A stretch of 64,000 nucleotides of DNA from positions 1-64,000 of IMG/VR virus record IMGVR_UViG_3300027911_000001; one strand, written 5' to 3'. Below, one piece after another: positions 1-25,139 of the stretch. Position numbers and translations under genes: made by a program. Within the stretch, counting starts at the first letter, position 1. Each line of letters starts with the position of its first letter. This DNA comes from a virus. The notes under the pieces were generated by a model. The model made no database searches and had not been told where the DNA came from. It saw only the letters and a list, made by a program, of their open reading frames with translations.

Positions 1-110
1 ACCTATGCATATGTGTAAGATAAACTCAAATCTATTTAAAGTACCGTGGGGAGATACCAAATCTGTGCTAAAAGAGTTCGATAAGGAATTCACGGTATAC
101 GATTTTTAGG

Positions 111-139
111 TTGACATTCGGATATATTCGATATAATAT
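111..139 (+). promoter_or_regulatory. sigma70-type promoter (TTGACA-17 nt-TAATAT)
   Basis: TTGACA at 111-116 and TAATAT at 134-139 (alternative TATAAT at 132-137). It fires into a GC-rich tract with no convincing + strand ORF. Confidence 0.55.
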
Positions 140-143
140 TGGA

Positions 144-366
144 TTGTAGAGGCGGCGTGGAAAGCTGTGGCATCAGGAAACTGATTAATGCGATATGCGG
201 TCCTAAAGGACAAGCGTCTAAAAAGTCCACTGGAGACACGCAACATACGTAATAGGCAAGGGGCTTGACCTGAGAGTTCGCGCTAAGAGAGTGAGATGGC
301 ATCAAACCAGTCTTAGATGGCCAAAGTCGTAACAGGATAGTCAGAGTCGCGTCTGGCCCTCTACAA
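144..366 (+). ncRNA. candidate structured ncRNA 1 (family unknown)
   Basis: The predicted +1 coincides with the 5' arm of a terminal helix, TTGTAGAGG (144-152) pairing with CCTCTACAA (358-366). Internal hairpins at 200-211 and 341-356. Visibly GC-richer than the flanks. The only long ORF here is an odd-composition antisense one. Confidence 0.4.
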
Positions 367-367
367 T

Positions 368-1372
368 TTATTCGGGCTTTACTACATACCAATTAGTGTC
401 GTTTTGCTGCAATGCCGGAGTATCTATGTTTCCTACAATTTTTATTCCACCAACATAGCCCTTTGGATCGGCTAAGCTAACGGCAGCCGGATTAGTATCT
501 TGCAAGATAACGCTTTCAATCTTTTTGTGTAATCCGCGTACCCAACTTTGAATAACTCTGCCAAACATAGTTACTTGCCTAGCATAGATCTCTTCGCCGC
601 CTGGGTTGCTGAATTCGGGGTTAAAAATATCAGTACTACTAAGTTTAGTTTCTAAGAACCCGTTATGCTCGAAAAACTCTCTATATCTGAGCAAAGTATA
701 TATAACAATGCTATGCAACCAGAGAAGAGATTGAGGATCGTTCGTAGCGCAGGTTATGTTCCAGTTTTCTTCAAAGAAGCTTCGCCCCATACGAGATTGG
801 AAATATCTATATTGTGGAACTACACTTAGTTGTGTAGCGTCCAATTCTAAATTTGCTTGAATTAAAATATTTTGTCCGTCTACGCCTAAAATAGGTGTGC
901 CGTCGCCATTAGCTGGATTTAGTAAAACCATTCCAGCAGATACGGCGGATAAATCCAAGCCTTCGGCTGTTTCAACGGTGCCTGTACTAGGATCGAAACC
1001 GATGGGCGCAAATGGGGGCACTACGTAGGGAATCTTCTGATCGACTTGATTTGGCAAGAGCACTACATTATGTTCGCCTACGTCACCCATAGTACGATTG
1101 TCTTGGAACTCAACACTGGAACCTAATGTTAAAAATATAGCCGGAAACTTTTCTTTATCTTTACTGAACTGAAGCTGAACGTTAATGTTATTATTGGCAA
1201 ACCATTCTTTGGCGGCTTGAATTTGCTTACTTCCATATGGAGTTTTTAAAAATGAATTGTGGGTAAAATCTGCCAATAGAAAATCTAACAACCAAAGATT
1301 TTCTTTGACGTCTTTTATAGAAGCTTCTAGGATTGCTTTCAACATCGCATCAGTTTGAAATATGCCGCTCAT
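368..1372 (-). CDS. hypothetical protein (distal gene of leftward virion-module operon)
   Basis: 334-aa ORF with a 3-nt spacer to the upstream ORF. No motif recognised. Confidence 0.8.
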   Translation of the reverse strand: MSGIFQTDAMLKAILEASIKDVKENLWLLDFLLADFTHNSFLKTPYGSKQIQAAKEWFANNNINVQLQFSKDKEKFPAIFLTLGSSVEFQDNRTMGDVGEHNVVLLPNQVDQKIPYVVPPFAPIGFDPSTGTVETAEGLDLSAVSAGMVLLNPANGDGTPILGVDGQNILIQANLELDATQLSVVPQYRYFQSRMGRSFFEENWNITCATNDPQSLLWLHSIVIYTLLRYREFFEHNGFLETKLSSTDIFNPEFSNPGGEEIYARQVTMFGRVIQSWVRGLHKKIESVILQDTNPAAVSLADPKGYVGGIKIVGNIDTPALQQNDTNWYVVKPE

Positions 1373-1375
1373 AAA

Positions 1376-2224
1376 TTAATCCTTCCACTTCGCAAAGATT
1401 TCTGGTAGAATCTTGTTATAGAATTCATTCTCTGCCCACTCAGCAGTTTTATCCATATATTTCTTAGCTGTATACCCAGGATGAATAAATTTACTATCGG
1501 CGTATTTAGATGACGCAGTACGAAATGTCATCCAAGATCTAGTGACCTTTGTCTTTCCACTTTTAGATTTAATTGGATTTCCAGCATTATCTTTTTCAAT
1601 AGCCTGGTAGACTCTTATGCGTTCTAGGGGATCGGAATGCCAATTAGACACGGCCTTGCCGCCCTTAAAATTAAACTCGTGCAAGAAACCTTCTTTAGGT
1701 TTACCGTTTTTGTCTGTTTCAATTTTTTTCCACGGAACAGGATCCAGTCCATTAGCTTTTCTAACTTTATTTTGAGCTTTCAACTCAAATTGAACACGGT
1801 CGGATAAGGTTTTTTCGTAACCGCTCTGTTCTGAGGGAAATTTAGAATGCTTGAAAGGTATTACTAGATATTTGTTACCATCTTTACTGACTTTAGTCTT
1901 ATCTGATTTAAATAGCCAGCGATCTGTAGCCATTGGAGTATTTGTCGGAATGCCTTCTTCAACCCACATAGCAGATCCAGACATAGTTATTACGTGCGTG
2001 TTTTCATCAATAGTATTCAGGGTAATATTGTCATCGCCGTCTTTATTCCTTTGAAAGACTTTGTAGACATTATTGCTAAGTTGATCTTTGGCCATCTCAT
2101 TGATATGCTGTTTTGCAGCTATAGCAAGACCCTTGACTGCCCTAGAGAGAAATTTCTTAACTTCCTCTTGAGCATCTTTACATGCGTCTAGTATGTCTTT
2201 TGATTTGATATCAATTTTTAGCAT
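1376..2224 (-). CDS. hypothetical protein (virion module)
   Basis: 282-aa ORF packed in the same-strand operon. No motif recognised. Confidence 0.8.
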   Translation of the reverse strand: MLKIDIKSKDILDACKDAQEEVKKFLSRAVKGLAIAAKQHINEMAKDQLSNNVYKVFQRNKDGDDNITLNTIDENTHVITMSGSAMWVEEGIPTNTPMATDRWLFKSDKTKVSKDGNKYLVIPFKHSKFPSEQSGYEKTLSDRVQFELKAQNKVRKANGLDPVPWKKIETDKNGKPKEGFLHEFNFKGGKAVSNWHSDPLERIRVYQAIEKDNAGNPIKSKSGKTKVTRSWMTFRTASSKYADSKFIHPGYTAKKYMDKTAEWAENEFYNKILPEIFAKWKD

Positions 2225-2226
2225 GT

Positions 2227-2493
2227 TTATCCTTTTACGGGCAAACCTCTGGGACCTTTAACGCGTGGAGATTTCATATCAATCATCGCAATTTTTCCAG
2301 TAGTAGGATCTAAGAATTTTTTTTGTCCTTTAGCGTTCACAGAACCAATAGGATCTGGAGTTTTCGCTATATGCGGGCTAGGACTTTTTGAGGGAAGTTT
2401 TTTAACTGATCCGATTGCCCCCTCGGCTTGCGCTTCGGGGTTACTGCTGTGGGGCTCCGAACGGTCCCTCCTTGGGAACCGCAGGTTGCTCAT
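2227..2493 (-). CDS. small basic Gly/Pro/Lys-rich protein, start uncertain
   Basis: Only ORF filling the 214 nt between the stop of 2441..4090 and the start of 1376..2224. The first in-frame ATG is at 2493. The track ORF runs to a TTG at 2652, in the +1 frame over the acidic tail of the upstream gene. Confidence 0.35.
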   Translation of the reverse strand: MSNLRFPRRDRSEPHSSNPEAQAEGAIGSVKKLPSKSPSPHIAKTPDPIGSVNAKGQKKFLDPTTGKIAMIDMKSPRVKGPRGLPVKG

Positions 2494-4090
2494 TTTCTTT
2501 ATCAGAATGTCCGCAATTAGGACAGCTGTCGTCGGCTGGGACTTCTTGTGGGGCTTCCTCTTGAGGAAACTCTTGTTCGGCTCCGGGCTGTTCTTCTGGA
2601 ACAGCCCCCCCTTCGATTTCATTAACTTCTTGTTCGGCTTCTCCGCCATCAATACCAGCTAGAGAGCAGAGTTCGATGAGTGCGCGTAACAAAGATATGC
2701 ATGAGGAATATAACTCTGGGGCTTGATCTTTTGCTTTATCCAAAATAGCTTTTTGAGATTTGAATCCTTCCAAAGCTTCGCCAATCATATTGATAACCTT
2801 TTCTTTTTGAATATCATCGGCATGCTGGTCTAGGCCATCATTCATGACATTTAAAAGAGAAGAGTCTTCTTCGGCTTCATCTTCGCTAAGTCCCATATCT
2901 TGCTGTTTGTCATCGTAATCTGCGGGATGACTGACGCCATCAGAATCCATGCCGTCAATCATGTCTTTGTGATTTTCGGCGTGTTGATCCAAAACTTCTT
3001 CTACCGAATCTTCGGGACCGCTTCCAATTGAATCGGCAAAATCTTTAGCATTATCTAAATGTTGATCCAGTATGCTTTCGATGTCTTCGCCATGCTCATC
3101 GCAAGTACAGCTTGGACAATGTCTATCTGCGCCCATATCTTCGGCTTCGGTTTCTTCAGCCAAATCAGAGGTAGCATCTTCGATAGGCATATCCGCTTGA
3201 GGCTCAATTTGTTCGCCATCGCCAGGAAGATATTTCAAATCACTAGGCCTGTCTTCTCTAGGTTGAGCTTCGCTTTCAGGAGCTTCACCTTCAGCTTGTC
3301 CATGGTATCCTTTGGGATCTGGTTTAGGTATCATAGGGCCTTCTTCTCCTGGATTTGCAGGTTCTTCGTTCATTACCCGATCACACTCTGGATAGTCGGC
3401 GGAAACAGCTTCAGGCAATCTAGGTTTAGCTTTAAGGTTAGGTTTTTCAATTACGGGTCTTGGCTCATCGTTAGCTTCATAGGATTCTTGTCTAGCTTCA
3501 GGCTCACTGTTTTTATACCCAGAATCATAACCATGATTGTTATCTTTTTTTGGAGGCTCAGAGAGAGTAGGTTCATTTTCTTCTGAATCAGTCCCTTCAG
3601 GAAGAACTTGATCAGAAGGCTCAATTGGATCAGTAACAGCCAGGATAGCTTTTTGTTCTGGGGAATCTCCAGACTCTTGATCTCTTTCTTCTTGAATTTT
3701 TTGAGAATGCTTTTCAGAATTGTCACTATATTGAACTACTTTGTTTTTACCGGTTTCTTTTGCTTCCAAAAGAGCTTTACCGGCTTCGCTTGGTCTAGAG
3801 CCATACCCAATAGATAGGGTAGATCCTATCATGTATTCATAGTCTTTTCTAAGTTGTTCTAAATCGTTTACGGCTTCTGCAGGAGCCTCGAAAACCCCTT
3901 CATCTCCACCGAGACTTATTTTTCTTCCACCACGAGCTTCGAAAAATTCTTGAACCATTTCATTAGCGGCTGTGATAGATTCAGAAATACGGCTAATCTC
4001 TTCAATATTGTCGTCTAATAGAGCGGCGGCGTGTCTTTTGCCGATCTCATCTCCATCAGTTGCAAAGTAAAGAACGTTTTGGTTACCCAT
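2441..4090 (-). CDS. minimal GGDEF/mCpol-like palm (nucleotide-cyclase-type) domain fused to a ~420-aa acidic low-complexity tail
   Basis: The first ~125 aa carry, in order, YFATDGDEIGK, SLGGDEGVF, TLSIGYG and AGKALLEAKETGKNKV. These parallel the GGDEF-domain blocks DxDxFKxxND, GGDEF, SxGxA and ADxALYxAKxxGRNR. The rest is D/E/P-rich with two CxxC pairs. Confidence 0.6.
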   Translation of the reverse strand: MGNQNVLYFATDGDEIGKRHAAALLDDNIEEISRISESITAANEMVQEFFEARGGRKISLGGDEGVFEAPAEAVNDLEQLRKDYEYMIGSTLSIGYGSRPSEAGKALLEAKETGKNKVVQYSDNSEKHSQKIQEERDQESGDSPEQKAILAVTDPIEPSDQVLPEGTDSEENEPTLSEPPKKDNNHGYDSGYKNSEPEARQESYEANDEPRPVIEKPNLKAKPRLPEAVSADYPECDRVMNEEPANPGEEGPMIPKPDPKGYHGQAEGEAPESEAQPREDRPSDLKYLPGDGEQIEPQADMPIEDATSDLAEETEAEDMGADRHCPSCTCDEHGEDIESILDQHLDNAKDFADSIGSGPEDSVEEVLDQHAENHKDMIDGMDSDGVSHPADYDDKQQDMGLSEDEAEEDSSLLNVMNDGLDQHADDIQKEKVINMIGEALEGFKSQKAILDKAKDQAPELYSSCISLLRALIELCSLAGIDGGEAEQEVNEIEGGAVPEEQPGAEQEFPQEEAPQEVPADDSCPNCGHSDKENEQPAVPKEGPFGAPQQ

Positions 4091-4994
4091 TTTTACTCCT
4101 TAATACTTCTAGGAGCATTTCAATATTTTCTTCAGACCAAGATTTAGGAAACGAAACCTTAATACCATCTTCAGTTTTCTTCAAATAAACCTTATTTCCC
4201 ATATCTGACCCAAAACACATACAGGCGGATATACCGGAATCATTAAAAATGGTTTGATTGCAATCAGGGCAGTTAACTGTTTCACTTTTGGTCATTTCAA
4301 TGGAGAATTCTTTTTTTGCAAGTTTCCTTTTTCTATTTTCAACGAAATCAGATAAGGGTGACTTCTTTTTAGAAACTACAATAACTACTGCTTTGGGCTC
4401 TTCCTTTTGTTCTTCTTTGATCTCTTTATGCTCTTCAGTCATTTGAGTAAGCTTTGCCATAATCATTTGCTGAACGGCATCTCTGTGCATTAACTTACCA
4501 TCTATAACTTGATTAATTAAAGAATGTAGATTTAGGCGTTCATCGATGATCTTACTGATCTGACTCTCCATGGAACTATCCATTTTGGGTCCTACAGAAG
4601 GATTTTCAAAATCATACAGTTCGAGCATTGTCATTAAAACTAAACCTAAGCCTGGGACCGATCTATGCATGAAGTCACTTATTTTTACATTATTCTGTAA
4701 AATTTGACCGCTATAGCTGTCTCTTTCGTGCTTGGTAGTACGTACAATAGTATCGTCTTTGCCAGGAATTCGAATTTCCTTGGTATCGCCAATTTGCATT
4801 GGAGAAAGTTCGCGGACTAATAATCCAAGTAGGGCTTTTGGAACTATTTGAAGACCTTGAAAAAGATCATCGGTATCTGTAATTGTTCGAGTGCCTTGCT
4901 TGTATACCTCGCTCTTAGATAAAACTTCCTCTAAAGACTTCGAAAAGTCTTCACCGAGAGTTTTATTAATAAAGAGTTCGGCGTTTTTACCCAT
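4083..4994 (-). CDS. hypothetical protein with C-terminal Cys cluster (CPDC...CMC)
   Basis: 303-aa ORF with an 8-nt overlap with the downstream gene. Lys/Glu-rich linker and a Cys cluster near the C-terminus. Confidence 0.8.
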   Translation of the reverse strand: MGKNAELFINKTLGEDFSKSLEEVLSKSEVYKQGTRTITDTDDLFQGLQIVPKALLGLLVRELSPMQIGDTKEIRIPGKDDTIVRTTKHERDSYSGQILQNNVKISDFMHRSVPGLGLVLMTMLELYDFENPSVGPKMDSSMESQISKIIDERLNLHSLINQVIDGKLMHRDAVQQMIMAKLTQMTEEHKEIKEEQKEEPKAVVIVVSKKKSPLSDFVENRKRKLAKKEFSIEMTKSETVNCPDCNQTIFNDSGISACMCFGSDMGNKVYLKKTEDGIKVSFPKSWSEENIEMLLEVLRSKNG

Positions 4995-4997
4995 ATA

Positions 4998-5480
4998 CTA
5001 AGAAGGGCTGCCAGGTTGATCATTGCTATTTACAAATGCAGGAGCTTGAACTGTGATATTGGTTTCATCATTGATCAAAAATACAAGTAAATTAGCAGAA
5101 CTTGAAATTACCCAACTATTATATCCGCTAGCAAAAAAGCTCCACGAGTTTGCGGGGCAAGGGAGACCGACATTTCCATTGGCATCAGCGATACCAACAG
5201 CAAGAGAAGCAACGGTACCGTCGCTACCAAAAGTAAGAGACAGAACGCCATTAGAGTTGTTATAAACTGCCAAGTTTTTACCGGCACCTGGAAGAGGATA
5301 AGCAGCAGAGCTAACATCTGTGGTATATCCAACCCCAACTCCTGGAACAGGAAGAGGTAATAAATGCTGTCCTTGCTCTGATGTTTTGATGGCTCCGGCT
5401 GCATTATTGTATTGCAGCATTGAAATAGCGCTAGGATCTTGGACTGAACTGCCTGGCTGATTTCTTTTTTTAATATCCAT
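4998..5480 (-). CDS. hypothetical protein (Gly/Ala/Ser/Asn-rich, structural-type composition)
   Basis: 160-aa ORF in the operon. No motif recognised. Confidence 0.75.
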   Translation of the reverse strand: MDIKKRNQPGSSVQDPSAISMLQYNNAAGAIKTSEQGQHLLPLPVPGVGVGYTTDVSSAAYPLPGAGKNLAVYNNSNGVLSLTFGSDGTVASLAVGIADANGNVGLPCPANSWSFFASGYNSWVISSSANLLVFLINDETNITVQAPAFVNSNDQPGSPS

Positions 5481-5526
5481 AAGTCACCGTTTTCCTTTGT
5501 AAATTGCCCATTATATATTATAAAGA

Positions 5527-6471
5527 TTACTCGTCATTTGCGATATCAGTTGTCTCGACCCGAACTATACCGGTTTTGATCGGTATTGTATCAGGAGTTT
5601 CAATAGTTTGCCTATTTTCAGCGCCTTTTTGGGGAGCTGGATGGGTCTCGTCACCCCTGTTAATATTATGATAAAGATACTCTCTTTGAATTTGAACAAA
5701 ATAGGGCATTCTCTCAGATTTTCTAACGGTACCCTCGGTAACATCGGTAATTCTGACTTCTCTAATGATACTGCTTACATAGTAAAAAGCTCTATAAAGA
5801 TACCTGATAGAGTAGGTGCGACCTTCACCGGTATCGGGATCGACTCCTGGATTGGAGGCGCCTTCTATCCATCTGATATTGCCATTTTCAGTAATGATAA
5901 AATCCTTACCTTGACTATATTGGGCACCAGTAGAATCCATTATGGGAAGGAGCATTCTACGGATCGGATACATTGGTACGTTATCTGTGTTAAATGAAAA
6001 ATTCAGTAATTCTTTATTCACTACCAAATCATCAGCTTGGGAATCAGAGTGATAAAGCCTGTCGCCGGGGGTTAAATATATTCTTTTTTCTTCAGGAGGA
6101 CAAGTACAAGGAGATGTGCCATGGTCGTGATCGTAAAATCTTGGAAGTACCAAGTTAGCTTGGGACGAGTCCAAAAGAGCACCTTCGGAAGGTCTAGTTT
6201 GATCTTTTTGATTTCCTGTCATTACAGCAGTAAAGGTTCCCATAGCAGCATAGACGTATCCGTTAGAAGTAATAACGTCGGTCTCGTTCCTGCGATAATC
6301 CCCTTTATCATTTAATCCAATAGGAGATGGGCTGGCGGCCCAATGAGTAAAGGTCGTACCTAGGCCTCTAACGAATGCATCCATTCGAGGTAAATCAAAG
6401 GACTCTTGCACGTAGGGAAAGGTGACAGGTACAGCCTGTATTTGCTCCCCTACAGGTTTCTTATTCGCCAT
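5527..6471 (-). CDS. hypothetical protein (virion module)
   Basis: 314-aa ORF in the operon. No motif recognised. Confidence 0.8.
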   Translation of the reverse strand: MANKKPVGEQIQAVPVTFPYVQESFDLPRMDAFVRGLGTTFTHWAASPSPIGLNDKGDYRRNETDVITSNGYVYAAMGTFTAVMTGNQKDQTRPSEGALLDSSQANLVLPRFYDHDHGTSPCTCPPEEKRIYLTPGDRLYHSDSQADDLVVNKELLNFSFNTDNVPMYPIRRMLLPIMDSTGAQYSQGKDFIITENGNIRWIEGASNPGVDPDTGEGRTYSIRYLYRAFYYVSSIIREVRITDVTEGTVRKSERMPYFVQIQREYLYHNINRGDETHPAPQKGAENRQTIETPDTIPIKTGIVRVETTDIANDE

Positions 6472-6655
6472 CTAGTTCCTTTTGGCAGATTAAGGTAATC
6501 TCTTCTAGCTTTTGATCTGCGGTTTTATGTAAGATAGCCATCTTACCAATTATATCACAAATCATGGATTCTTGTTTTAGCTTCTTATTCTTCTTAAATG
6601 ATTGGGCGTCTACGACTTTATTGTTGTCTTTAGCTGGGGTAATTTTGTCGCTCAT
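6461..6655 (-). CDS. small hypothetical protein
   Basis: 64-aa ORF with AAGGA upstream inside the preceding gene. Overlaps the next gene by 11 nt. Confidence 0.6.
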   Translation of the reverse strand: MSDKITPAKDNNKVVDAQSFKKNKKLKQESMICDIIGKMAILHKTADQKLEEITLICQKELDGE

Positions 6656-6656
6656 A

Positions 6657-7142
6657 TTATTTGATCCTTATCTTTTTTGACTCACAAGATTTTGCTTTTT
6701 CTACAGTAGCGGCGGCCATTGCGCTTTTAAACTCTTCTGGGAAACTAACTTCGGGAATAAAAAGGGAATCATCTTGAACAATACAGCTCAAGGAACCTAC
6801 TTTAAGGTTATGCCTAGTAATTTGAAATTCGATATCGTTTCCTGTTTGTACAGAATAGATATCGTGACCAGATTTACGTAGGTCGTCTGAAAGAAAATGG
6901 GAATGTCTATCAACTATTGCATCGGCAGCAAGATTTTCAGATTTACAAAGAGCGGGTTGGAAACCTGAATGCATTTTAGAGATCATATGTTTTACGATGG
7001 CAGGATGAGACCCAGCGGACAGGACCTTTCCTTTGCTGATACCCATCCAAAAGCCGCCCTTTGTGCGGATGAGCTTTACTTCTTGGCCATCTAGCATTCC
7101 AGCGGATTCGATTGTGTCTATTTGGTCGGGCGTTAAGTTCAT
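6657..7142 (-). CDS. hypothetical protein
   Basis: Start placed at ATG 7142, which is preceded by GAGGAGA and sits 1 nt after the stop of 7144..8394. The track ORF extends to 7166. Confidence 0.75.
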   Translation of the reverse strand: MNLTPDQIDTIESAGMLDGQEVKLIRTKGGFWMGISKGKVLSAGSHPAIVKHMISKMHSGFQPALCKSENLAADAIVDRHSHFLSDDLRKSGHDIYSVQTGNDIEFQITRHNLKVGSLSCIVQDDSLFIPEVSFPEEFKSAMAAATVEKAKSCESKKIRIK

Positions 7143-7143
7143 A

Positions 7144-8394
7144 TTATTTGTCTCCTCTATAAGCATGTCTTATTTTTTGTACATAAGGATGCTTTTCAAT
7201 ATTATGTTTTGCTTTTAAAGCTTTATTTGTTCCGGAAATTCCTTGATTCCAAGCGTATCCTAGTTTAGCAGGATCTCTGCCAAGATGATGCTCTAAACGA
7301 TCGAGATGTCTATTTACAATAGCTTGTTCCAATTTAGGATTATCTTGCATATATCTATTGAGATTATCACCCTGAAGCTGTAAAGCTTTTCTATATTGTC
7401 TTTTTAAATCAGGGTTCATCTTAATAGTTTCATGAATAGTATCTGGCATTACAGCCCAAGCACCATATGCGGTTCCATGAGAAGTTGGCTTATGTTGAGT
7501 ATTTTTACCGCCAGAACTTTCGACTTGTTTGATAGCATTAAGCATTTTATCTCTAGAATATTGTTCGGGGGGATGACCTGCGGCAGGCGCATGGGCGGGA
7601 TTTGCAGCCATAAGACTTCCGGCCATTGCTCCGGCAGTTAACATGCTTTTAAGAGTGCCCTTTTTCATATCTTCAGCCTTTCCAACTTTTTCTGGGAGTT
7701 TTTTGCCTTTTGTAGCTTCATCCCATTCGTGTACGGCGGCTTCTCCGCCTAATGCTTCCTTGCCAGCTTTCGTATGAGCCCAACGTCTTTGAGCATCTGA
7801 AGAATAAGGTTTCATTAAGGGTTCTAAAATTTCGGCTTTTTGAACTTCTTTTGGACCGTAAGTGTATAGAGTGTGAGGCCCGCGTCTTAGCTCAGGATAC
7901 GCAAATTCTATATTAGCATCCGCAGCAGTTTTATAACTATTGGATTTGATTTCATCATATAAAGCTTTAGGTATGGATATATGAGCTTTCCATTCGTATT
8001 CATCTTCAAAACCAAGTACCGAAAGTTTTTCATGTCTGGCTTTCATTTCGTCTGCGTCTGGACCGCTTAAAGTTAGAGAATAGACATCATTGCCTAATCT
8101 ATCTTTTAATACGGAAGGGGTAATTTTCATTTCTTTAGGGTTAGGGATATGAGGTTCAAAATCTTTTGCTATTTTATGAACATTATCTACGCTATCATTT
8201 TCTTTGTCAAAAAATCTTACAGTAGCATGATAAGGAATATTGTTATCTTCCCTACGGTCTTTTCCATTTATAGTGAGCGGATAGGCCAAAATAAACCCAG
8301 TCATAGCCAATGCCTTATAAGCTTGGGGGTTCTCGGCTTTTGAGAGCGGAGAATTTTCTACGAGAGTTTTTTTAAGGCTTTTATAAAGACTCAT
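7144..8394 (-). CDS. 2H-phosphoesterase-like domain + hydrophobic segment + SLT lytic transglycosylase domain (virion/ejection protein candidate)
   Basis: YHATVRF (about aa 56) and KAHISIP (about aa 139) form paired HxT/Sx motifs about 83 aa apart. Hydrophobic stretch LKSMLTAGAMAGSLMAA. C-terminal QVESSGG, AYGAWAVMPDT and GYAWNQG match the family-1 lytic transglycosylase blocks (ES, GLMQ, AYNxG). Confidence 0.65.
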   Translation of the reverse strand: MSLYKSLKKTLVENSPLSKAENPQAYKALAMTGFILAYPLTINGKDRREDNNIPYHATVRFFDKENDSVDNVHKIAKDFEPHIPNPKEMKITPSVLKDRLGNDVYSLTLSGPDADEMKARHEKLSVLGFEDEYEWKAHISIPKALYDEIKSNSYKTAADANIEFAYPELRRGPHTLYTYGPKEVQKAEILEPLMKPYSSDAQRRWAHTKAGKEALGGEAAVHEWDEATKGKKLPEKVGKAEDMKKGTLKSMLTAGAMAGSLMAANPAHAPAAGHPPEQYSRDKMLNAIKQVESSGGKNTQHKPTSHGTAYGAWAVMPDTIHETIKMNPDLKRQYRKALQLQGDNLNRYMQDNPKLEQAIVNRHLDRLEHHLGRDPAKLGYAWNQGISGTNKALKAKHNIEKHPYVQKIRHAYRGDK

Positions 8395-8397
8395 ATT

Positions 8398-9252
8398 TTA
8401 ATATTCACCAATTACATATTTCTTAGCGAATATACCTTTTATTTTGGCGATAAGCTCATTACGACTTTCTTTTAATTCTTCTATACGAAGAGCAAATCTA
8501 CGAGGCCCAAGTGTACTCGAGCTTTGTGATACGCCGTCTTGCGATAGACTTTGAGAAGTAGCAGTATAGAATTGTGCGATTTGGCTAATAAGGTTTATAG
8601 CCGCATTAGTTCCGACAAGCTGATTTACGATTACTGGCAAATGACCTTCGCGATTTGAAATACCGCTCGAATAATTTAATTGCCAATAAGCAGGTACTTG
8701 CCCTGCATTGCCTGCAGAGCCCCAAATTGCCAAGAAGGCAACGCCGGCACCTTGGTTGGTAACGGTTATCGGTGATCCAGTTACAGAGGTCGCTCCAAAA
8801 GCAGCTAACAATGGAATTACGTTGATCTGACCAATACTTGCGTTGGCCATATCCACCCACATGCTTGGAACGACAAATATGGTTTCATCGTTACTCGCCA
8901 CAATAGATAAAGATTCCAAACTAATAATCGGACTGTGCCTAGGTTTTAGGTGAATGAAGGACTTGTATAAGGACCAATCAAAAGGGAGCTTCTCTTTAAA
9001 TTCTTCTCTTGTAAGGGTAACGCCAATTTGAGCTTCGGTCTCATTCATGGCCATCATGATGCGATCTTTAAGGATATCTGGGGTAAATGTATCGCCGTTA
9101 GGAAGAGTTAAAGGAATACCTAAAAGAAATCTATTTTTGAAAAGCTCAGGCGTAAGGAAAGGCTCTACGCGGCGCAAAAGACCGGATGTTTCCTGCGCAT
9201 GGACAGGATACACACTTGTTTGAAACGTACGTGAAGCCAAAAAGTTACTCAT
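8398..9252 (-). CDS. hypothetical protein (virion module)
   Basis: 284-aa ORF in the operon. No motif recognised. Confidence 0.8.
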   Translation of the reverse strand: MSNFLASRTFQTSVYPVHAQETSGLLRRVEPFLTPELFKNRFLLGIPLTLPNGDTFTPDILKDRIMMAMNETEAQIGVTLTREEFKEKLPFDWSLYKSFIHLKPRHSPIISLESLSIVASNDETIFVVPSMWVDMANASIGQINVIPLLAAFGATSVTGSPITVTNQGAGVAFLAIWGSAGNAGQVPAYWQLNYSSGISNREGHLPVIVNQLVGTNAAINLISQIAQFYTATSQSLSQDGVSQSSSTLGPRRFALRIEELKESRNELIAKIKGIFAKKYVIGEY

Positions 9253-9308
9253 TAATTACTCCCGATACCTAATTTAAATATACCCGATGGTAAGCCAAAA
9301 GTCAATTC

Positions 9309-9752
9309 CTAGAAAAAGAATGTATTGTCTGGAAGGTTACCGTCAGAACCATCGGCGCTATATTCGACTACAAGCATTTGCTGTACAATAAAATTACTAG
9401 CCACATTACCTTCAAATAGCTGAAATTTAACAGCTCCTGTTTGCGGAGTATTGGTTTGAGGGATCTGTACGCTAAAGATACTACCGTCGCAACTGTTTTG
9501 CTGCGCTATAAGCGTTATAACCTTGCTACAGTCGATACTAGGGAAATTAACCCTCATACCAATAACTATACCTTCGGCGCATGCGCCAGGCAAATATCGC
9601 AAAGCACACGCCGGATCACAAGCGCTATCTAGATCAACTAGTTGAAAATATAAGGTAGCTTGATTTCCTGCTTGAATAATCCATTGATTCGCGTACTTAA
9701 AACTATTTACGTTTTGATAGTTAATAATAGGTCTTGCTGAAAGTCTGGCCAT
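9309..9752 (-). CDS. hypothetical protein (first gene of leftward virion operon)
   Basis: 147-aa ORF with a Cys-containing, beta-type composition. Confidence 0.75.
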   Translation of the reverse strand: MARLSARPIINYQNVNSFKYANQWIIQAGNQATLYFQLVDLDSACDPACALRYLPGACAEGIVIGMRVNFPSIDCSKVITLIAQQNSCDGSIFSVQIPQTNTPQTGAVKFQLFEGNVASNFIVQQMLVVEYSADGSDGNLPDNTFFF

Positions 9753-9846
9753 ATTTTTTGCCCCTAAAAAGTCTTGACAAAGCAGCCCGAAAAGGGTAAG
9801 CTTTTAAGTAAAGATTGGTTGTTTCGACCGATCGGAAGGTAACTAT

Positions 9847-10122
9847 ATGAAAAGTAAGAAGAAAGCTAAGTCTAAGAAATGTGGCAAGAAAACCAAGGAA
9901 AAATGCAAAAAGCCCAAATGTTGCGATGTGAAGACAAAACAAGCAGAACCTTTTTTAGAAGATCCTGCTTTTCGCGAACCTCCGATAACCATATTAGATT
10001 TTAGCGACCCTAATCTTGGTCGTCCGGCACCTCTTCCCGTTTCTGGTAGCGGAGAGGAAGTCGGCCAATTGTTTGGACCTGTTAAGGCTTTCTTTAAAAA
10101 ACTATTGGGACGCAAAAAATGA
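9847..10122 (+). CDS. Lys/Cys-rich small protein
   Basis: 91-aa ORF with GGAAGG 7 nt upstream of the ATG. Confidence 0.6.
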   Translation: MKSKKKAKSKKCGKKTKEKCKKPKCCDVKTKQAEPFLEDPAFREPPITILDFSDPNLGRPAPLPVSGSGEEVGQLFGPVKAFFKKLLGRKK

Positions 10123-10313
10123 TTTATTTGTCCATTTTTGGTCCAATGTTCTTGTCTCTCACTTTGTTTGGTTATCTTGATACAAAGTATCCTACTGATG
10201 GATGGGAAGGTTTTTTCCCCATATTCATTTTATGGCCAGTGGGATTAGTTCTTTTTATTATAATTTCGCCATATATGTTAGGAAAATATTTAGCAAATAG
10301 GAGCAAAAAATGA
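10119..10313 (+). CDS. small membrane protein
   Basis: 64 aa with two hydrophobic segments. ATGA-coupled on both sides. Confidence 0.6.
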   Translation: MIYLSIFGPMFLSLTLFGYLDTKYPTDGWEGFFPIFILWPVGLVLFIIISPYMLGKYLANRSKK

Positions 10314-10972
10314 AAAGAGTTATTGCTGTGAGTGGCTTTAAGCGTTCAGGAAAAGATACCTTGGCTGATTACCTTTTAAGTAATGACGAATCGGCTTATA
10401 GAGTTTCCTTCGCAGGTCCTTTAAAAGATGAAGTGGCGGATAAATTTAATATTCCACGCGACTGGCTGGATAATCCAGAATATAAAGAATCCCCTATTCT
10501 TTCTATGCCAGTAGACCCCCAAGATAAATTCTCATCTACTGTTATCAATTTTATGCTTCCTGAATTTAAGGTAGCCGATACGAATCAAAGAGATGCCCAG
10601 CTATATTGGACACCACGTGCGCTCGCGATCCTTGTCGGATCAACTTCTAGAGCCGCAGACCCTAATCATTGGGTAAAGCAGGCCATTAAGGAAGCGGAAG
10701 AAGCCCATTATGAAATGGGTTACGAAACTGTGGTTATTTCTGATTTACGTTATAAAAGCGAAGTAGCTTTGTTAAGAAAACAGTTTGGAGATAACTTAAT
10801 TACTATTAGAGTAAATCGTTTCGACACTTCGCCATCTCAAGATCCAAGCGAAGTAGATTTGGTGGGTTACGAACACGATTATGTTATCGACAATAAAGGC
10901 ACAAAAGAAGAGTTCTTTACTAAAATAGATTATCTACTAGCGACATTAAATAAAAAAGGCCCTCAGTCATAA
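10310..10972 (+). CDS. P-loop kinase, phage dNMP-kinase-like
   Basis: N-terminal Walker A (VSGFKRSGKDT). Size and layout resemble phage deoxynucleotide monophosphate kinases. Confidence 0.5.
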   Translation: MKRVIAVSGFKRSGKDTLADYLLSNDESAYRVSFAGPLKDEVADKFNIPRDWLDNPEYKESPILSMPVDPQDKFSSTVINFMLPEFKVADTNQRDAQLYWTPRALAILVGSTSRAADPNHWVKQAIKEAEEAHYEMGYETVVISDLRYKSEVALLRKQFGDNLITIRVNRFDTSPSQDPSEVDLVGYEHDYVIDNKGTKEEFFTKIDYLLATLNKKGPQS

Positions 10973-10992
10973 ACTGAGAGCCTTTAAAATTT
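10958..10992. terminator. bidirectional intrinsic terminator between convergent genes
   Basis: GGCCCTCAGT-cataa-ACTGAGAGCC hairpin (1 mismatch), flanked by an A-run upstream and a T-rich tract downstream. Confidence 0.6.
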
Positions 10993-11008
10993 TTCTTATT
11001 AAAAAGAA

Positions 11009-11356
11009 TTACAATACAAACGAAGCAGCTGCAGGCAATGCAGGCATCGCACGTAAAACGATATAAAGATCGCCTATGACAGCAGCGCCATCGGGATTAG
11101 TCCCTGCAGTAATAACTGCAGCCCAATCAGCATTACCGGCTACAGCTGGAATGTGAATAACCTGATCTCCTACTTTTAAAGCACCGAAATCCGTTACAGC
11201 AGAGGCGGCGGTAGCAACGATAGAAGCTGGAATATAGAATCCACCAAGGGCAGCAACTGCTGCTCCGTTGTTAATAGCTGATACAACTTCGTTACCAGCA
11301 CTTTGAGAAGTCAATGCGATAAGCATTCTTTTTGAAGCATTTGTTGAAAGTGACAT
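11009..11356 (-). CDS. Ala/Gly-rich hypothetical protein
   Basis: 115-aa ORF with AAAGGAGAAA upstream. Confidence 0.7.
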   Translation of the reverse strand: MSLSTNASKRMLIALTSQSAGNEVVSAINNGAAVAALGGFYIPASIVATAASAVTDFGALKVGDQVIHIPAVAGNADWAAVITAGTNPDGAAVIGDLYIVLRAMPALPAAASFVL

Positions 11357-11428
11357 TATTTTTCTCCTTTAAAGTTTGAATCCCGTCGCTAAACGGGGGA
11401 ACATGTTCATTGTAAAGATTGATGTTTT

Positions 11429-12100
11429 CTATAATTCAACCACTATTGGAATGTTAGAAGGCTTGTAATTCTCATCACATATAGCCGCATTGGCATATTT
11501 GACCCCATTAAGATCGACAATACCGTACCCACTATGAAGATGCCCAAAACAATGAAGCTTAAGATTTTTTAACTCTTTAATTCTATCCAAAAGATCTTTG
11601 CATCCGACGTGATCTACTACGACTTCGCCCTTTCCGACATCAAATCTTAATACTGGATCCAAAATACCATACGGTGGGCCATGGGTAGCCAGCGCATCTA
11701 TATCAAAGGGTATCCTATCCCAATGGCGTTTGATCTCATCTCCTCTATATCTATTATAGGCCCAATTATGGAAATAAGGAGTCATAGCCGAGCACCAGAT
11801 CTTGAGACCTTCTAGCTCTATTAAGCCTTCTTCTATAAAGTGAACTCTTGGACAGGCTTCTTCAGCTATTTGTTTGGATAGGGCAAAATTCTTCTCTACA
11901 CCCTTTTCATGGTTACCCTGAACAGAAATAATGTGTTTGGCATCTTGTTTATTAAGCCATTCATGAAAGTTTTTGACTTCATGAGGCTCTCCTAAAAAAC
12001 TGTAGTCTCCGGTAGAAAGCAGAATATCGCATTCTGGAATAATCAGCTTATTAAACTTACAGTGAACATCTGAAATCATACATATTTTAGTCATCGTCAT
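11429..12100 (-). CDS. calcineurin-like metallophosphoesterase
   Basis: Motifs SDVH, GDY, GNHE, THGPP and GHLH occur in the canonical order. Confidence 0.8.
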   Translation of the reverse strand: MTMTKICMISDVHCKFNKLIIPECDILLSTGDYSFLGEPHEVKNFHEWLNKQDAKHIISVQGNHEKGVEKNFALSKQIAEEACPRVHFIEEGLIELEGLKIWCSAMTPYFHNWAYNRYRGDEIKRHWDRIPFDIDALATHGPPYGILDPVLRFDVGKGEVVVDHVGCKDLLDRIKELKNLKLHCFGHLHSGYGIVDLNGVKYANAAICDENYKPSNIPIVVEL

Positions 12101-13584: not shown

Positions 13585-13611
13585 GGCAGCTTTTTAAAAG
13601 GAGAAATGAAA

Positions 13612-14997
13612 ATGATCGAACAACTTCAATCACTAATGAAAGCCCTTGAAGCAGGCAGTTATATGTCCGCTCCAGGGAACTTAGAACAAGGCGCAGCTCT
13701 TCAAATGGAAGATCTGTCCCCAGTTATGCAGAATGTCACTTTTGACGATTCTCATATCAAATTGCAAAAGATCCTTCCTTCAAAAGAAGTTAAATCTCAA
13801 TTGCACCAATTCAATCGCCAATTAGACTACGGTATCTTTGGTGGATCTGCTCAGTTTGAAGGCGGCGTCGGAGAAGAAGACGTGTCGAATTTCATTCGCG
13901 CAGTGGTCCCAATGTCTTATTACAGCACGATTCGTCGTGTTACTGTTGCTGCCAACATGATTGGCGCATTCGACGGCGTTAAAGCTGAAGATCGCTCTTC
14001 TGCTGATGCTGCAATGAAAATCGCTGGCGATATTGAGTTTGACTCCTTCCGTGGACAATCGAATTTCTCTAACAACGGTGTTTTCGATGGTAACCCTCTC
14101 GCTGTAGCTCAAATGCCGAACATGATCGGTGTTGACCAACAAGTTCGTCAATCCGACAGCCAAGCAAATACTCAAGATTTGATGTTTGCTGAATACGGTT
14201 CTAATCAAACTGTGGTTCTCCAAGTCGGTGGAACTCTTACTCAATCTGTTATCGAAGATTCTTCGGTTCGTTCGGCCATGAACATGGGCGCAGCTGACCG
14301 TTTGATCCTTGATCCTATCAGCTTGTCTGCATATAACAAAATTGCACATGCCAAAGAGCGTATCATGCTCGCTGGCTCTGCTCAAGAAGCGACTGGCGCT
14401 CACCTTCGTACACAATGGACTTCGTCCGCTGTTGTTTCGTTGGAAGCTTCCCGTTTCTTGTCCGGAAAAACCCAACCAGCTCGTAGCCGTGCTGGAGCCC
14501 CTGCTGCTCCTTCTATCGCTGTCGCTGACGGTGGTGCTGCTGGATCCTTGCTCTTAGCTGGAACCTACGTTTATTATGCAACGGCTTGTTCAATCATCGG
14601 TGAGTCTCTCCCTGGTGCTGCTCAAACTGCAACCGTTACCGCTGCTGGCGATAAAGTCAATGTGACTATTACCGCTGTATCGGGCGCTGCATACTACAAC
14701 GTATATCGTTCGGCTCTTGGTTCGAATGCTGCTAATGCAAAATTCATTGGAAGCATCAGACAAGGTAGCGGAAACCCAGTATTCGTTGACTTAGGCAACA
14801 AATCCCCTGGTTTCGTCACTGGATACTTGATCCAAGGCAACACCCTCGGATTTGCTCAATTGGCTCCTTATAGCAAATTAAAACTTGCTGTTTCGGACCT
14901 CTCGCTTCCAGAAGCTCATTTTAGATTCTTAAGCTTAGCTGCTTATCAACCTAGAAAGAACGTCATTCTAGACAATATCACTGGCCAATTAAGCTAA
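13612..14997 (+). CDS. major capsid protein candidate with FN3/Ig-like insertion
   Basis: About 460 aa. AAGGAG lies 8 nt before ATG 13612 (the track start at 13606 is only 2 nt from the SD). Follows the scaffold-like gene and is followed by a strong terminator. The TAVSGAAYYNVYRS segment resembles an FN3-type module. Confidence 0.6.
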   Translation: MIEQLQSLMKALEAGSYMSAPGNLEQGAALQMEDLSPVMQNVTFDDSHIKLQKILPSKEVKSQLHQFNRQLDYGIFGGSAQFEGGVGEEDVSNFIRAVVPMSYYSTIRRVTVAANMIGAFDGVKAEDRSSADAAMKIAGDIEFDSFRGQSNFSNNGVFDGNPLAVAQMPNMIGVDQQVRQSDSQANTQDLMFAEYGSNQTVVLQVGGTLTQSVIEDSSVRSAMNMGAADRLILDPISLSAYNKIAHAKERIMLAGSAQEATGAHLRTQWTSSAVVSLEASRFLSGKTQPARSRAGAPAAPSIAVADGGAAGSLLLAGTYVYYATACSIIGESLPGAAQTATVTAAGDKVNVTITAVSGAAYYNVYRSALGSNAANAKFIGSIRQGSGNPVFVDLGNKSPGFVTGYLIQGNTLGFAQLAPYSKLKLAVSDLSLPEAHFRFLSLAAYQPRKNVILDNITGQLS

Positions 14998-15022
14998 TTA
15001 GATATTCAATATAATTTATAAG

Positions 15023-15059
15023 GGGTCGATCATTAAATTGATCGGCCCTTTTTATTTTT
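15023..15059 (+). terminator. intrinsic terminator after capsid gene
   Basis: 10-bp stem GGGTCGATCA / TGATCGGCCC (one G-U pair), 6-nt loop, then TTTTTATTTTT. Confidence 0.8.
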
Positions 15060-15118
15060 ATCAATATAATCCATTACATACGTGCAAAAAGCCAATCTTT
15101 ACCTTAACATGTAAGTAT

Positions 15119-15128
15119 CCCTTACAAG
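15119..15128 (+). promoter_or_regulatory. CCCTTACAAG box upstream of tail operon
   Basis: Exact copy of 12197-12206. Confidence 0.3.
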
Positions 15129-15158
15129 TTAAATCTTTTAACGTGGGTTAAAAGTACC

Positions 15159-15176
15159 GTTGACCGTGGGGTCAAC
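15159..15176 (+). promoter_or_regulatory. 5'-leader hairpin of tail operon
   Basis: GTTGACC-gtgg-GGTCAAC, a 7-bp stem just before the SD of 15197. Embedded in AAAGTACCGT...CCGTGGGG, which also occurs at 38-51. Confidence 0.4.
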
Positions 15177-15196
15177 TCCTTAAAAGGATTGGTAAA

Positions 15197-16045
15197 ATGG
15201 CATTTGAAAAGGCATGGAGCACTGTCTCCCCTATACCCTTAACAGCAGATGGCACCTCATTAGGTGTCATCACAGTCGCTGATACGGATGGTTTCAAAGT
15301 CAAAGGTATTGCCCAACTAAAAAATAATACCGGTCTGAACATGATAGTTCAGGTCAATCAAGTTCTCTCTAAAACAACAATCATAGTCGGTAAACCTGGA
15401 AGTTCCCCTTCTGCTACAGAAGGCGGCATCCAAAGCGGATCCATAGTGGATGTAAGCGCTTTTACAACAGCATTACTTTCAACTATTGGTTTTGGGATGC
15501 AACCTAAAAATAAAATCAAGCCAGACGACATAGAACAGGCGACATATGAGGCTGATCCTACTGTAGCCGTTAGAACCATAGGTGTAGACCCTTATGGTGA
15601 TTTTTATACAGCTGATAATCCCCTTCCCGTAGCTATCGATGGAACCATTTCCATAGCCCAAGTTGAAGTTAAGGGCACTAATGGAAATTTTTTAGAACCT
15701 AATGCAGATGGATCGATAAATACAGTTGGTACTAGTGTAGTTTCCGGAACGGTTGATGTCAACCTAAATGGTTTAAATGCTTTTCAGACTAGCCAATATC
15801 CGGTAGGAACGGGATCTGTTCAAATAACTCCTACCCCTTTAACTAATAGAAGCAGCGTTTGTCTAAAAGCTATCTGTCCTGGCACAAATATAATTTACAT
15901 TGGAAATAGCAGCGGAGTAACTACCTCTACAGGCTACCCACTATTCAATGGGGATACAGTTCAAATGGACCTGACCCCTTTGGACCAAATTTGGGCTGTC
16001 GGTAATGCTAACGGCAACACTTTATGTGCTTTGGAGATAGGATAA
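15197..16045 (+). CDS. hypothetical protein (tail module)
   Basis: 282-aa ORF preceding the tail fibre gene. Confidence 0.75.
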   Translation: MAFEKAWSTVSPIPLTADGTSLGVITVADTDGFKVKGIAQLKNNTGLNMIVQVNQVLSKTTIIVGKPGSSPSATEGGIQSGSIVDVSAFTTALLSTIGFGMQPKNKIKPDDIEQATYEADPTVAVRTIGVDPYGDFYTADNPLPVAIDGTISIAQVEVKGTNGNFLEPNADGSINTVGTSVVSGTVDVNLNGLNAFQTSQYPVGTGSVQITPTPLTNRSSVCLKAICPGTNIIYIGNSSGVTTSTGYPLFNGDTVQMDLTPLDQIWAVGNANGNTLCALEIG

Positions 16046-16046
16046 T

Positions 16047-16247
16047 ATGGCCAGGATTGGAGCCAGTGGAACTGGCGGTGCATCTACAGGCTTACCAAAT
16101 TACATCTACGCTTACGGATTCATTTGGCTCGATAACGTACCTTTCGGGCAAACCTTTTTTATTGGACCAAACCAACAAAGTTTGGCCATTAATACATTTA
16201 CTTTATACGGCGATATGATCGTAGAAGGTACGTTTTTAATATTATAA
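16047..16247 (+). CDS. small hypothetical protein
   Basis: 66-aa ORF with a 1-nt spacer after the upstream gene. Confidence 0.55.
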   Translation: MARIGASGTGGASTGLPNYIYAYGFIWLDNVPFGQTFFIGPNQQSLAINTFTLYGDMIVEGTFLIL

Positions 16248-16258
16248 GGATTTAAATT

Positions 16259-24523: not shown

Positions 24524-24543
24524 ATCAAATCTCCTACAGCTAC

Positions 24544-24570
24544 GTTATATCATATCTGAGGAAATGTCAA
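24544..24570 (-). promoter_or_regulatory. sigma70-type promoter for leftward operon
   Basis: On the minus strand: TTGACA-15 nt-TATAAC with a TGa extended -10. AGGAG SD downstream. Confidence 0.4.
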
Positions 24571-24666
24571 GAAAAATCCTTTTAATATTAAACTTATGTA
24601 ATTTTTACGTACCACAAAGACTCACTCACAAACAATAAGACTCTAATAAAATTTTCAATTTTTGAA

Positions 24667-24694
24667 AACGGGAACGGGAACGGGAACGGGAACG
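24667..24694. repeat. (AACGGG) x4.7 tandem hexamer
   Basis: Perfect tandem copies in the 407-nt divergent intergenic region. Confidence 0.9.
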
Positions 24695-24922: not shown

Positions 24923-24930
24923 TACAGATC

Positions 24931-25137: not shown

Positions 25138-25139
25138 GT

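Follow-up and report, generated by a model that had tools for sequence, protein, structure and literature searches.

We analyzed a 64,000-nucleotide (nt) stretch of viral DNA (positions 1 to 64,000 of the IMG/VR record IMGVR_UViG_3300027911_000001; hereafter, the window), focusing on a leftward gene at 2441..4090 whose 549-residue (aa) product joins an mCpol-type minimal palm domain to a long acidic tail. The open reading frame (ORF) was confirmed in the ORF list of the window, and an identical protein, P0001, is encoded on a 164.8-kb metagenomic contig. The gene and the features of its palm portion are as follows:

2441..4090, minus strand: complete 549-aa ORF encoding the mCpol palm and the acidic tail
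3722..4075, minus strand: mCpol palm, aa 6-123, with β-α-β-β-α-β-α-β topology, recognized through Pfam PF18182, PDB sequence matches, and an AlphaFold2 model searched with Foldseek
4049..4057, minus strand: D12-G13-D14, the first-strand metal-binding Asp motif, in which D12 aligns with the catalytic Asp6 of KpOptS
3899..3910, minus strand: G61-G62-D63-E64 hairpin (GGDE), in which D63 and/or E64 corresponds to KpOptS Asp57

An initial annotation, made from the sequence, had described the N-terminal region as a GGDEF/mCpol-like palm on the basis of four motifs. All four are present in the order given (YFATDGDEIGK at aa 8-18, SLGGDEGVF at aa 59-67, TLSIGYG at aa 91-97, and AGKALLEAKETGKNKV at aa 103-118), an agreement far beyond chance. 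The mCpol profile search that it had proposed was significant, PF18182 matching the palm with 67.7 bits (E 1.5e-18; gathering cutoff 26.4 bits) over profile positions 1-114 of 114. The mCpol part of the description therefore stands, while the GGDEF part does not: PF00990 (GGDEF) gave no match in the Pfam scan even at E up to 1, and, as read from the translation, the motif is GGDEG and the upstream segment EARGGRKISL lacks RxxD. The second-palm model of Cas10, PF22335, scored below threshold (19-23 bits versus a gathering cutoff of 27) on the single palm; no further Cas10 domains accompany it, and no Cas family was found in Pfam scans of the window ORFs, which argues against membership in Cas10.

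Searching all PDB sequences with phmmer retrieved two independently solved OptS mCpols of Panoptes, 9mnr/9pd0 and 9nwn, with E ~5e-7 along the full length of the domain. In an AlphaFold2 model for which 57 homologues were used, the predicted local distance difference test score (pLDDT) exceeded 90 over aa 10-130. The top Foldseek ranks were again the OptS structures 9mnr/9pd0/9nwn (E 1e-8, target-normalized template modeling score [TM-target] 0.86-0.89, root-mean-square deviation [rmsd] 1.5-1.8 Å over 116 columns), followed by a second tier of GGDEF domains (E ~1e-4, TM 0.47-0.58) and Cas10/Csm1 palms (E ~1e-4). The size and layout of the minimal mCpol clade, which had also been invoked for this protein, are thus matched by profile, solved-structure sequences, and fold, and the palm topology is present, so that neither outcome named beforehand as speaking against the annotation (a lack of profile hits or a fold without that topology) was obtained. 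We conclude that the N-terminal domain is almost certainly an mCpol-type minimal palm and not merely GGDEF-like. The usual mCpol architecture, a stand-alone protein of ~120-130 aa or a fusion to CARF/HEPN, is replaced here by fusion to a 424-aa tail, a difference that leaves membership in the mCpol domain family intact.

mCpol enzymes have been prominent since 2025 as the source of the decoy nucleotide that signals "all is well" in the Panoptes guard system, where they are the signal generators of types I (OptS-OptE) and II (mCpol-CARF-TM); OptS is constitutively active, with the palm alone being required (PMC12657218, PMC12657230), and OptS palms form dimers and tetramers (PMC12657218). The phage palm has the same size and topology as KpOptS (9mnr, 9pd0, 9nwn; 27% identity, TM 0.87-0.89, rmsd 1.5-1.8 Å), retains the first-strand Asp, the acidic hairpin residue, and the ATP-contacting Ser, and like KpOptS lacks a sensor domain. 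The two differ in that bacterial OptS is a stand-alone protein of ~120-130 aa encoded in a defence island, whereas the phage palm is fused to its 424-aa tail and encoded in a structural operon with no adjacent 2TM-beta or CARF-TM effector; moreover, the hairpin reads QAAD in KpOptS and canonical GGDE in the phage protein.

In KpOptS, Asp6 and Asp57 are catalytic, and Ser30 and Asn34 contact ATP (PMC12657218, PMC12657230). Pairwise alignment equates Asp6 with D12, Asp57 with E64 (beside D63), Ser30 with S36, and Asn34 with T40. Among the 57 aligned homologues, D12, D14, G17, G61, G62, D63, R81, K111, and G114 are invariant. When the family was broken down into 41 distinct loci, the DD…GGD(E/Q) pattern was found in 36 and an N12/S61 variant in four, with a degenerate site only in Myxococcus phage Mx1 (OR576727.2), a 169.6-kb myovirus. 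A separate, tail-based search (see below) gave the same picture, as D12, D14, GGD(E/Q), and K111 are kept in 61 of 61 palm-bearing cluster representatives, and position 115 is K in 60 of these and R in one. Judged from these alignments, the active site is strictly conserved wherever the palm is present, Mx1 excepted. Position 64 is E or Q across the family, with Q in about a fifth of the members; D63 is probably the metal ligand, as D63 never varies while E64 does. The ATP-contacting Ser at position 36 is kept in 59 of the 61 representatives and is S or T throughout the 41 loci. Position 40, the second base contact, is hypervariable, with more than 10 different residues in the 41 loci; this fits the role in OptS product diversity that has been reported for the base-contact positions (PMC12657218). 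On this pattern of conservation, the palm is likely to be catalytically active, and preservation of the catalytic residues would argue for synthesis over scavenging of nucleotides.

The remainder of the protein, aa 126-549 (424 aa), has an isoelectric point (pI) of 4.06, 26.7% D+E, 9.4% P, and a net charge of -81. Its main elements are:

3101..3715, minus strand: acidic, Pro-rich linker, aa 126-330, with net charge -34, 13% Pro, and low pLDDT
3512-3532, 3434-3445, and 3101-3121, minus strand: linker motifs GYDSGYK, KPNL, and HCPSCTC, respectively, each formed by invariant alignment columns
2954..3082, minus strand: two helices within aa 337-379 (337-354 and 363-379; pLDDT 72-80), each with one LDQHxxN
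2660..2857, minus strand: helical bundle, aa 412-477 (pLDDT 75-86), the most conserved part of the tail

The description of this region as D/E/P-rich and disordered holds for its acidity and composition; simple disorder is contradicted by the helices, the bundle, and a series of invariant motifs (GYDSGYK, KPNL, RxMN, HCPSCTC, three LDQHxxN, DMGLSE, and VNEIEG), the third LDQHxxN copy lying at aa 420. Columns 419-479 are nearly invariant, and the bundle also occurs in the Mx1 orthologue and in palm-less relatives. The comparison with internal or ejected virion proteins, of which such a tail was said to be typical, amounts to an analogy, no relative having been found in PHROG, Pfam, or PDB.

Full-length homologues share 50-60% identity over ~100% of their length. 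The full-length query returned 59 proteins. A query with the tail alone (aa 330-500), run against 1.84 billion cluster representatives, returned 105 clusters; among the 96 that were scanned by Pfam, 61 carry mCpol, 35 are tail-only, and none (0/96) contains a Pfam domain other than mCpol. We had considered the tail as a general delivery module with swappable N-terminal cargo and rejected this idea because none of the 96 representatives bears a non-mCpol Pfam domain. By this comparison, the tail, and not the palm, is the constant part of the gene slot, with the palm an accessory module on the tail protein. As the tail is constant while the palm can be intact, dead, or absent, the tail would carry the palm-independent function of the slot.

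The dead form is that of Mx1. WNM70340.1 (468 aa, annotated as hypothetical; 33963-35369) is the positional orthologue, with flanking genes 31% and 28% identical to those of the window, and resembles the window protein in its palm-like N-terminal domain (28% identical), acidic Pro/Gly linker, helical block, and basic C-terminal region. It differs in having lost the catalytic residues (D12→S, GGDE→LGAV, R81→A, K111→Q), and its Pfam mCpol score of 21 bits lies below the cutoff. Mx1 differs further in encoding a separate GGDEF protein, WNM70324.1, in its head module, for which the window has no counterpart. This protein (17173-17904; Pfam 38 bits) is annotated as a "nucleotide cyclase" and lies between a 1,239-aa "prohead protease" and the capsid gene; the viral contigs searched contained no relatives with such a GGDEF gene in which its co-occurrence with mCpol status could be followed. 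Palm-less forms are exemplified by L066 (6001-8100), in which a complete syntenic block contains a 699-aa slot protein without a palm, and no palm is present anywhere in its 14 kb. The ~370-aa N-terminal region of the L066 protein is unrecognized and begins with a Cys/His-rich segment (MKKLCKTHQEKVCDLHK…) common to ~8 cluster representatives; a ParB/Srx-like DGxHR motif noticed in this protein was dropped, as it had no Pfam support even at E up to 1. In L065, palm (154 aa) and tail (239 aa) occupy adjacent, separate ORFs, a split that may be real or an assembly frameshift. A similar palm/tail split in L067 was discounted because of assembly Ns inside it.

The family appears to be restricted to phages. 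A pattern scan with a 12-sequence N-domain alignment, covering one genome per species for 185,579 prokaryotic species, found only two contigs, both of them this phage block binned into metagenome-assembled genomes. A profile search of a large protein database with the N-domain returned mostly fragments, and tblastn of the N-domain against phages found nothing, since the Mx1 orthologue is too diverged or degenerate. In a distant relative, L005, which has a 756-aa mCpol-tail gene, we observed a gene of the Acb5 family, which are anti-CBASS cGAMP nucleases (4588-4845, minus strand), ~5 kb away in an early-gene cluster; this is a single observation.

The gene is followed by a further conserved element. 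In 36 distinct loci, a basic peptide of ~60 aa is encoded directly after the mCpol-tail gene (consensus …G-x-x-[IV]-[GK]-K-L-P-[TS]-K…H-[IV]-A-[KR]…K-G-x-x-G-x-P-V-K-G), as an in-frame fusion in 11 loci; it occupies the -1 frame in another 16 and, in the remaining nine, including the window, the +1 frame. All 16 loci of the -1 group (L011, L016, L017, L020, L021, L027, L028, L036, L038-L040, L042, L043, L046, L059, and L060) contain a phased slippery heptamer (C_CCA_AAR in 15, A_AAA_AAG in one) located 4-28 nt before the frame-0 stop, and in 15 of them the peptide has no start codon. The background is low, any such heptamer being found in the last 60 nt of 9.4% of all ORFs in these loci and CCCAAAN in 1.5%. 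At the sequence level, these observations provide strong evidence for programmed -1 frameshifting in the 16 relatives. The production of fixed-ratio C-terminal isoforms via -1 frameshifting is a hallmark of phage structural genes, as in lambda G/GT and T7 10A/10B. The 16 relatives resemble these cases in that a phased X_XXY_YYZ heptamer leads into a conserved extension, but differ in that the mCpol-tail gene encodes neither a tail-assembly chaperone nor a capsid protein.

The corresponding features of the window are:

2227..2493, minus strand: +1-frame ORF of 88 aa, pI 10.6, whose last ~63 aa (2230-2418) are the conserved basic peptide
2441..2455, minus strand: junction GCC CCA CAG CAG TAA, where the frame-0 end APQQ and its stop overlap PHSS(N/K)P in the +1 frame

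This junction is homologous in position to the C_CCA_AAR slip site of the -1 group: as far as the Pro, the fused relatives agree with frame 0 of the window (APKEG…APQQ-stop), and beyond it with the +1 frame (PHSSKP…KKLP). The form NCC CCA CAR is kept in seven of the nine loci of the +1 group and CC CCA CA in all nine; a slippery heptamer is present in none of them (0/9), and the window thus has no -1 frameshift site. L008 uses different Ser codons and still maintains the +1-frame peptide. An ATG at 2493 is a possible start of an independent 88-aa protein, and the gene caller lists a separate gene there; no Shine-Dalgarno sequence precedes this ATG, AAGGA(G) being present for eight of the 11 operon genes, and three loci of the +1 group lack any start codon for the peptide. 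In the window, the peptide may be expressed through a +1/-2 shift on C_CCC_A or by independent initiation at ATG 2493.

The surroundings of the gene are those of a virion operon:

368..9752, minus strand: co-directional structural block of 11 genes, of which the mCpol gene is the ninth
4083..4994, minus strand: 303-aa gene upstream of the mCpol gene, its stop overlapping the mCpol start by 8 nt
13606..14997, plus strand: major capsid protein (phrog_752, E 1.9e-38; 51.9% identity to the Mx1 major capsid protein)

The products of the block are, in order, 147, 284, 416, 169, 64, 314, 160, and 303 aa, the mCpol protein, and 282 and 334 aa. Matches were found for the 284-aa (phrog_772, tail fibre), 282-aa (phrog_16819), and 334-aa (phrog_1000/SP10_terminator, weak) products, along with a weak match to phrog_1004 (virion structural) within the block. 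The order 147-284-SLT-169-314-160-303-mCpol-282-334 is syntenic in ~50 related phage contigs; in the relatives L004 and L066, a sheath-sized gene and a Phi812-type tail tube gene follow downstream of the block, and the Mx1 homologues are found between its capsid and tail sheath genes. Positions 1-12000 of the window have no DNA similarity to GenBank phages; from the capsid protein, we assign the genome, of about 165 kb, to an Mx1-like myovirus. The PHROG virion matches, the Mx1-like capsid protein, and the synteny over ~50 contigs bear out the proposed location of the gene inside a leftward, structural-looking operon. It is not, as had also been stated, next to the SLT-bearing protein, as five genes separate the SLT gene (7144..8394, 416 aa) from the mCpol gene and the SLT match itself is borderline (21.4 bits versus a cutoff of 21.3). 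We found no minus-strand terminator-like sites inside the block, and a sigma-70 promoter scan showed no enrichment over shuffles. The gene context would argue for late co-expression with virion genes rather than for the early expression raised in the initial annotation.

The 303-aa protein is kept in all relatives, with C-x2-C…C-x-C as an invariant C-terminal motif; none of its 216 homologues is annotated. Modeled as a candidate sensor or effector, it gave a mediocre AlphaFold2 prediction (mean pLDDT 63.5) with no PDB fold match below E 0.1. Profiles of four neighbor families (A4-A7) had no matches below E 0.4 among PDB sequences, and tblastn of three neighbors against phages hit only unannotated Mx1 genes.

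No defence island surrounds the gene, in line with the initial annotation: the setting is a structural block, and PADLOC, Pfam, and PHROG scans of the neighbors revealed no sensor or sponge gene and no effector, be it 2TM-beta or CARF-TM as expected for Panoptes. When six operon proteins (the mCpol protein, the two flanking it, the product of the 88-aa ORF, and two further upstream) were submitted to PADLOC, only the palm portion of the CARF_HEPN_mCpol model was matched and no other component was found. Panoptes resides in bacterial genomes and defence islands, often beside CBASS; the gene described here resides in a phage structural block. In the literature searched, which does not include the first description of mCpol from 2015, no phage-encoded mCpol or anti-Panoptes factor is described.

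Based on these results, we tentatively favor, at slightly less than even probability, a reading in which the palm is an active cyclase, attached as an accessory N-terminal domain to a structural-block protein, produced late, and probably packaged in the virion. By analogy with OptS, the palm (aa 1-125) would oligomerize and condense nucleoside triphosphates into a cyclic di- or trinucleotide in any cytoplasm; the substrate is probably ATP, because the ATP-contacting Ser is conserved. The second part (aa 126-549), comprising the acidic linker with its Cys motifs, the LDQH helices, and the helical bundle, would occupy a fixed slot in the head-to-tail block and presumably serve in virion assembly or reside in the virion, the basic C terminus of ~60 aa being added to it by fusion, frameshift, or a separate ORF. 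Having been made late with the particle proteins, the palm would probably be carried into the next cell, where its product would tamper with nucleotide-based host signaling.

Precedents exist for parts of this scheme. A survey of polyvalent proteins (Iyer, Burroughs, Anand, de Souza, and Aravind 2017) noted that some phage proteins with predicted packaging and injection contain GGDEF domains, cyclases that the authors suggested to disturb host nucleotide signaling or act against rivals (PMC5512222). The window protein is similar to polyvalent proteins in that its palm cyclase domain is part of a longer phage polypeptide whose gene lies among those of the virion, and in the proposed interference with host nucleotide signaling; for both, packaging is a prediction. 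It differs in that its palm is mCpol, not GGDEF, and in that mCpol is its only recognizable domain, whereas polyvalent proteins combine several disparate enzymatic domains. The T4 Alt ADP-ribosyltransferase and the N4 virion RNA polymerase are enzymes of late or structural genes that are packaged and delivered with the DNA (PMC5512222). They offer a functional analogy for the reading we favor, without kinship in sequence or fold.

The initial annotation had raised a signal mimic, a signal scavenger, and a host-takeover factor as candidate roles. An action of the palm on immune signaling, suggested by analogy, is possible but rather doubtful. The most attractive target would be a Panoptes-type guard, which the phage would keep silent while degrading or sequestering immune nucleotides. 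In its complete form, a virion-delivered anti-Panoptes enzyme that restores the decoy cyclic nucleotide both at entry and late in infection, so that the effector is kept off, this idea is quite improbable. With such an enzyme, the guard could stay untriggered even as the phage depletes the signals of CBASS, type III CRISPR, or Thoeris, and the acidic tail together with the recoded basic peptide would load the palm into the particle at a fixed copy number. It would match the "anti-anti-anti-defence" predicted by the Panoptes authors, who expect a phage counter-measure (PMC12657218).

Conservation of the active site is also compatible with an active cyclase that is not packaged and works late in the cytoplasm of the producing cell, its gene merely lying in a late operon, a context that alone is no proof of packaging. 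Such an enzyme might alter host second messengers (c-di-AMP/c-di-GMP-like signals governing envelope, motility, or development) or oppose co-infecting rivals, in keeping with the host interference and anti-rival action proposed for phage GGDEF domains (PMC5512222), and the second palm cyclase of Mx1 (GGDEF, WNM70324.1) suggests a general use of nucleotide signals in this phage group. However, a purely cytoplasmic enzyme would have no obvious reason to be fused to the slot protein, as the palm is in 61 of 96 representatives, or to share a frameshift-controlled C terminus, and no receptor for its signal was identified; we regard this explanation as unlikely. Alternatively, the protein as a whole could be a scaffold, a neck component, or another assembly factor in which the palm serves for structure or oligomerization, in practice as a pseudo-enzyme, and nucleotide synthesis plays no part. 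Fold-level similarity and syntenic position persist in the Mx1 orthologue despite the loss of D12, GGDE, R81, and K111; L066 does without the palm altogether; and the dimers and tetramers of OptS palms indicate how a palm could multimerize the tail. Nevertheless, a structural domain would not be expected to hold catalytic residues invariant at 30-45% overall identity, and here both Asp residues, GGD(E/Q), and the lysines of AK..GK(N/D) are kept in 61/61 representatives and 36/41 loci, with Mx1 as the single exception, which renders a pseudo-enzyme improbable.

We consider two further explanations to be highly unlikely. In the first, the phage would use the gene as a module of the Panoptes or toxin-antitoxin kind, either for addiction or to exclude superinfecting phages. 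It draws on the use of mCpol as the signal generator of Panoptes types I and II and on the PADLOC match of the palm to the CARF_HEPN_mCpol model; such a module would need a partner, but no 2TM-beta, CARF, HEPN, or other effector turned up among the neighbors in Pfam, PHROG, and PADLOC scans, every flanking gene belongs to the conserved structural block, and the 303-aa neighbor has no transmembrane segment on reading of its sequence and no known fold. Nor does a role as a nucleotide binder or scavenger (sponge), as raised in the initial annotation, agree well with the data. Although phage sponges for immune nucleotides are common, the known ones have unrelated folds, the residues conserved here are the metal- and phosphate-binding catalytic set and not a product-binding pocket, and one palm per 549-aa chain would make a stoichiometrically poor sponge.

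Several observations weigh against the packaged cyclase that we favor. Gene order is what points to virion association of the protein, which we consider an even prospect, and genes for non-structural proteins do occur in the structural operons of large phages. A 424-aa, extremely acidic tail is not an obvious cargo to co-package with DNA, and neither the tail nor the flanking genes have a homologue with a solved structure or functional annotation in PHROG, Pfam, PDB, or tblastn searches against phages. Furthermore, the gene persists where the palm is absent (L066) or inactive (Mx1), and hence the palm is dispensable in some lineages. The peptide of the window lies in the +1 frame without a slippery heptamer. 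Finally, a Pfam sweep of 100 other ORFs of the window (64 of ~165 kb) revealed no Acb/Tad-type sponge or nuclease of the sort that would make an anti-Panoptes function necessary.

Although mCpol itself is known, we found no account, in the literature searched, of a phage-restricted, tail-fused mCpol family with recoded C termini that is encoded in a structural operon. To our knowledge, every mCpol characterized so far belongs to bacterial defence. An active enzyme would mean that Cas10-type, immune-like signals are also made by phages themselves, and one could then ask directly whether guard systems are disarmed by counterfeit decoy signals from viruses. Natural controls are at hand in the dead palm of Mx1, a cultivable phage, and in the palm-less relatives. 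With C_CCA_AAR, the family also adds to the conserved -1 frameshift sites a clean, new case that involves neither a tail chaperone nor a capsid protein, the classical settings. Without activity or packaging, the finding would shrink to an unusual domain fusion in an uncharacterized virion gene.

Other genes of this phage group merit brief mention. Where the window has the 416-aa SLT protein, Mx1 (24404-30710) encodes a 1,479-aa "NUDIX hydrolase" and a 619-aa "kinase", which are possible polyvalent or ejected enzymes. In L001, at 13982-16697 and thus beyond the left edge of the window, opposite-strand genes for a Macro domain protein, an NAPRTase, and a phosphoribosyltransferase form a three-gene insert between the structural block and the sheath-sized gene, the Macro gene reaching into the window at ~1-109; the insert looks like an NAD+/ADP-ribose salvage or counter-defence cassette. 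Signal-related proteins among the 100 ORFs swept include an HD_4 (RelA/SpoT-type HD) protein (49035-49505, plus strand), a SLOG-family (YAcAr) protein, and a response-regulator receiver domain.

Two fibre-type genes stand out in the window, a 1,679-aa tail fibre or spike with a terminal K1-lyase C-terminal domain (16259-21298, plus strand; PF24146, 85 bits) and a collagen-repeat fibre protein (31006-32016, minus strand). A 188-aa phage-integrase-family protein (27201-27767, minus strand; 72 bits) is present although the genome otherwise has the appearance of a large lytic myovirus, and homing-type nucleases of the GIY-YIG (27924-28379) and HNH (58019-58582) types are present. At the switch from leftward to rightward genes, an ORF-poor stretch of ~1.6 kb (41150-42750) yielded no tRNA and no Rfam family. 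It contains a 17-nt imperfect inverted repeat, its copies 735 nt apart, and a 14-nt direct repeat, and may be a regulatory or origin region.

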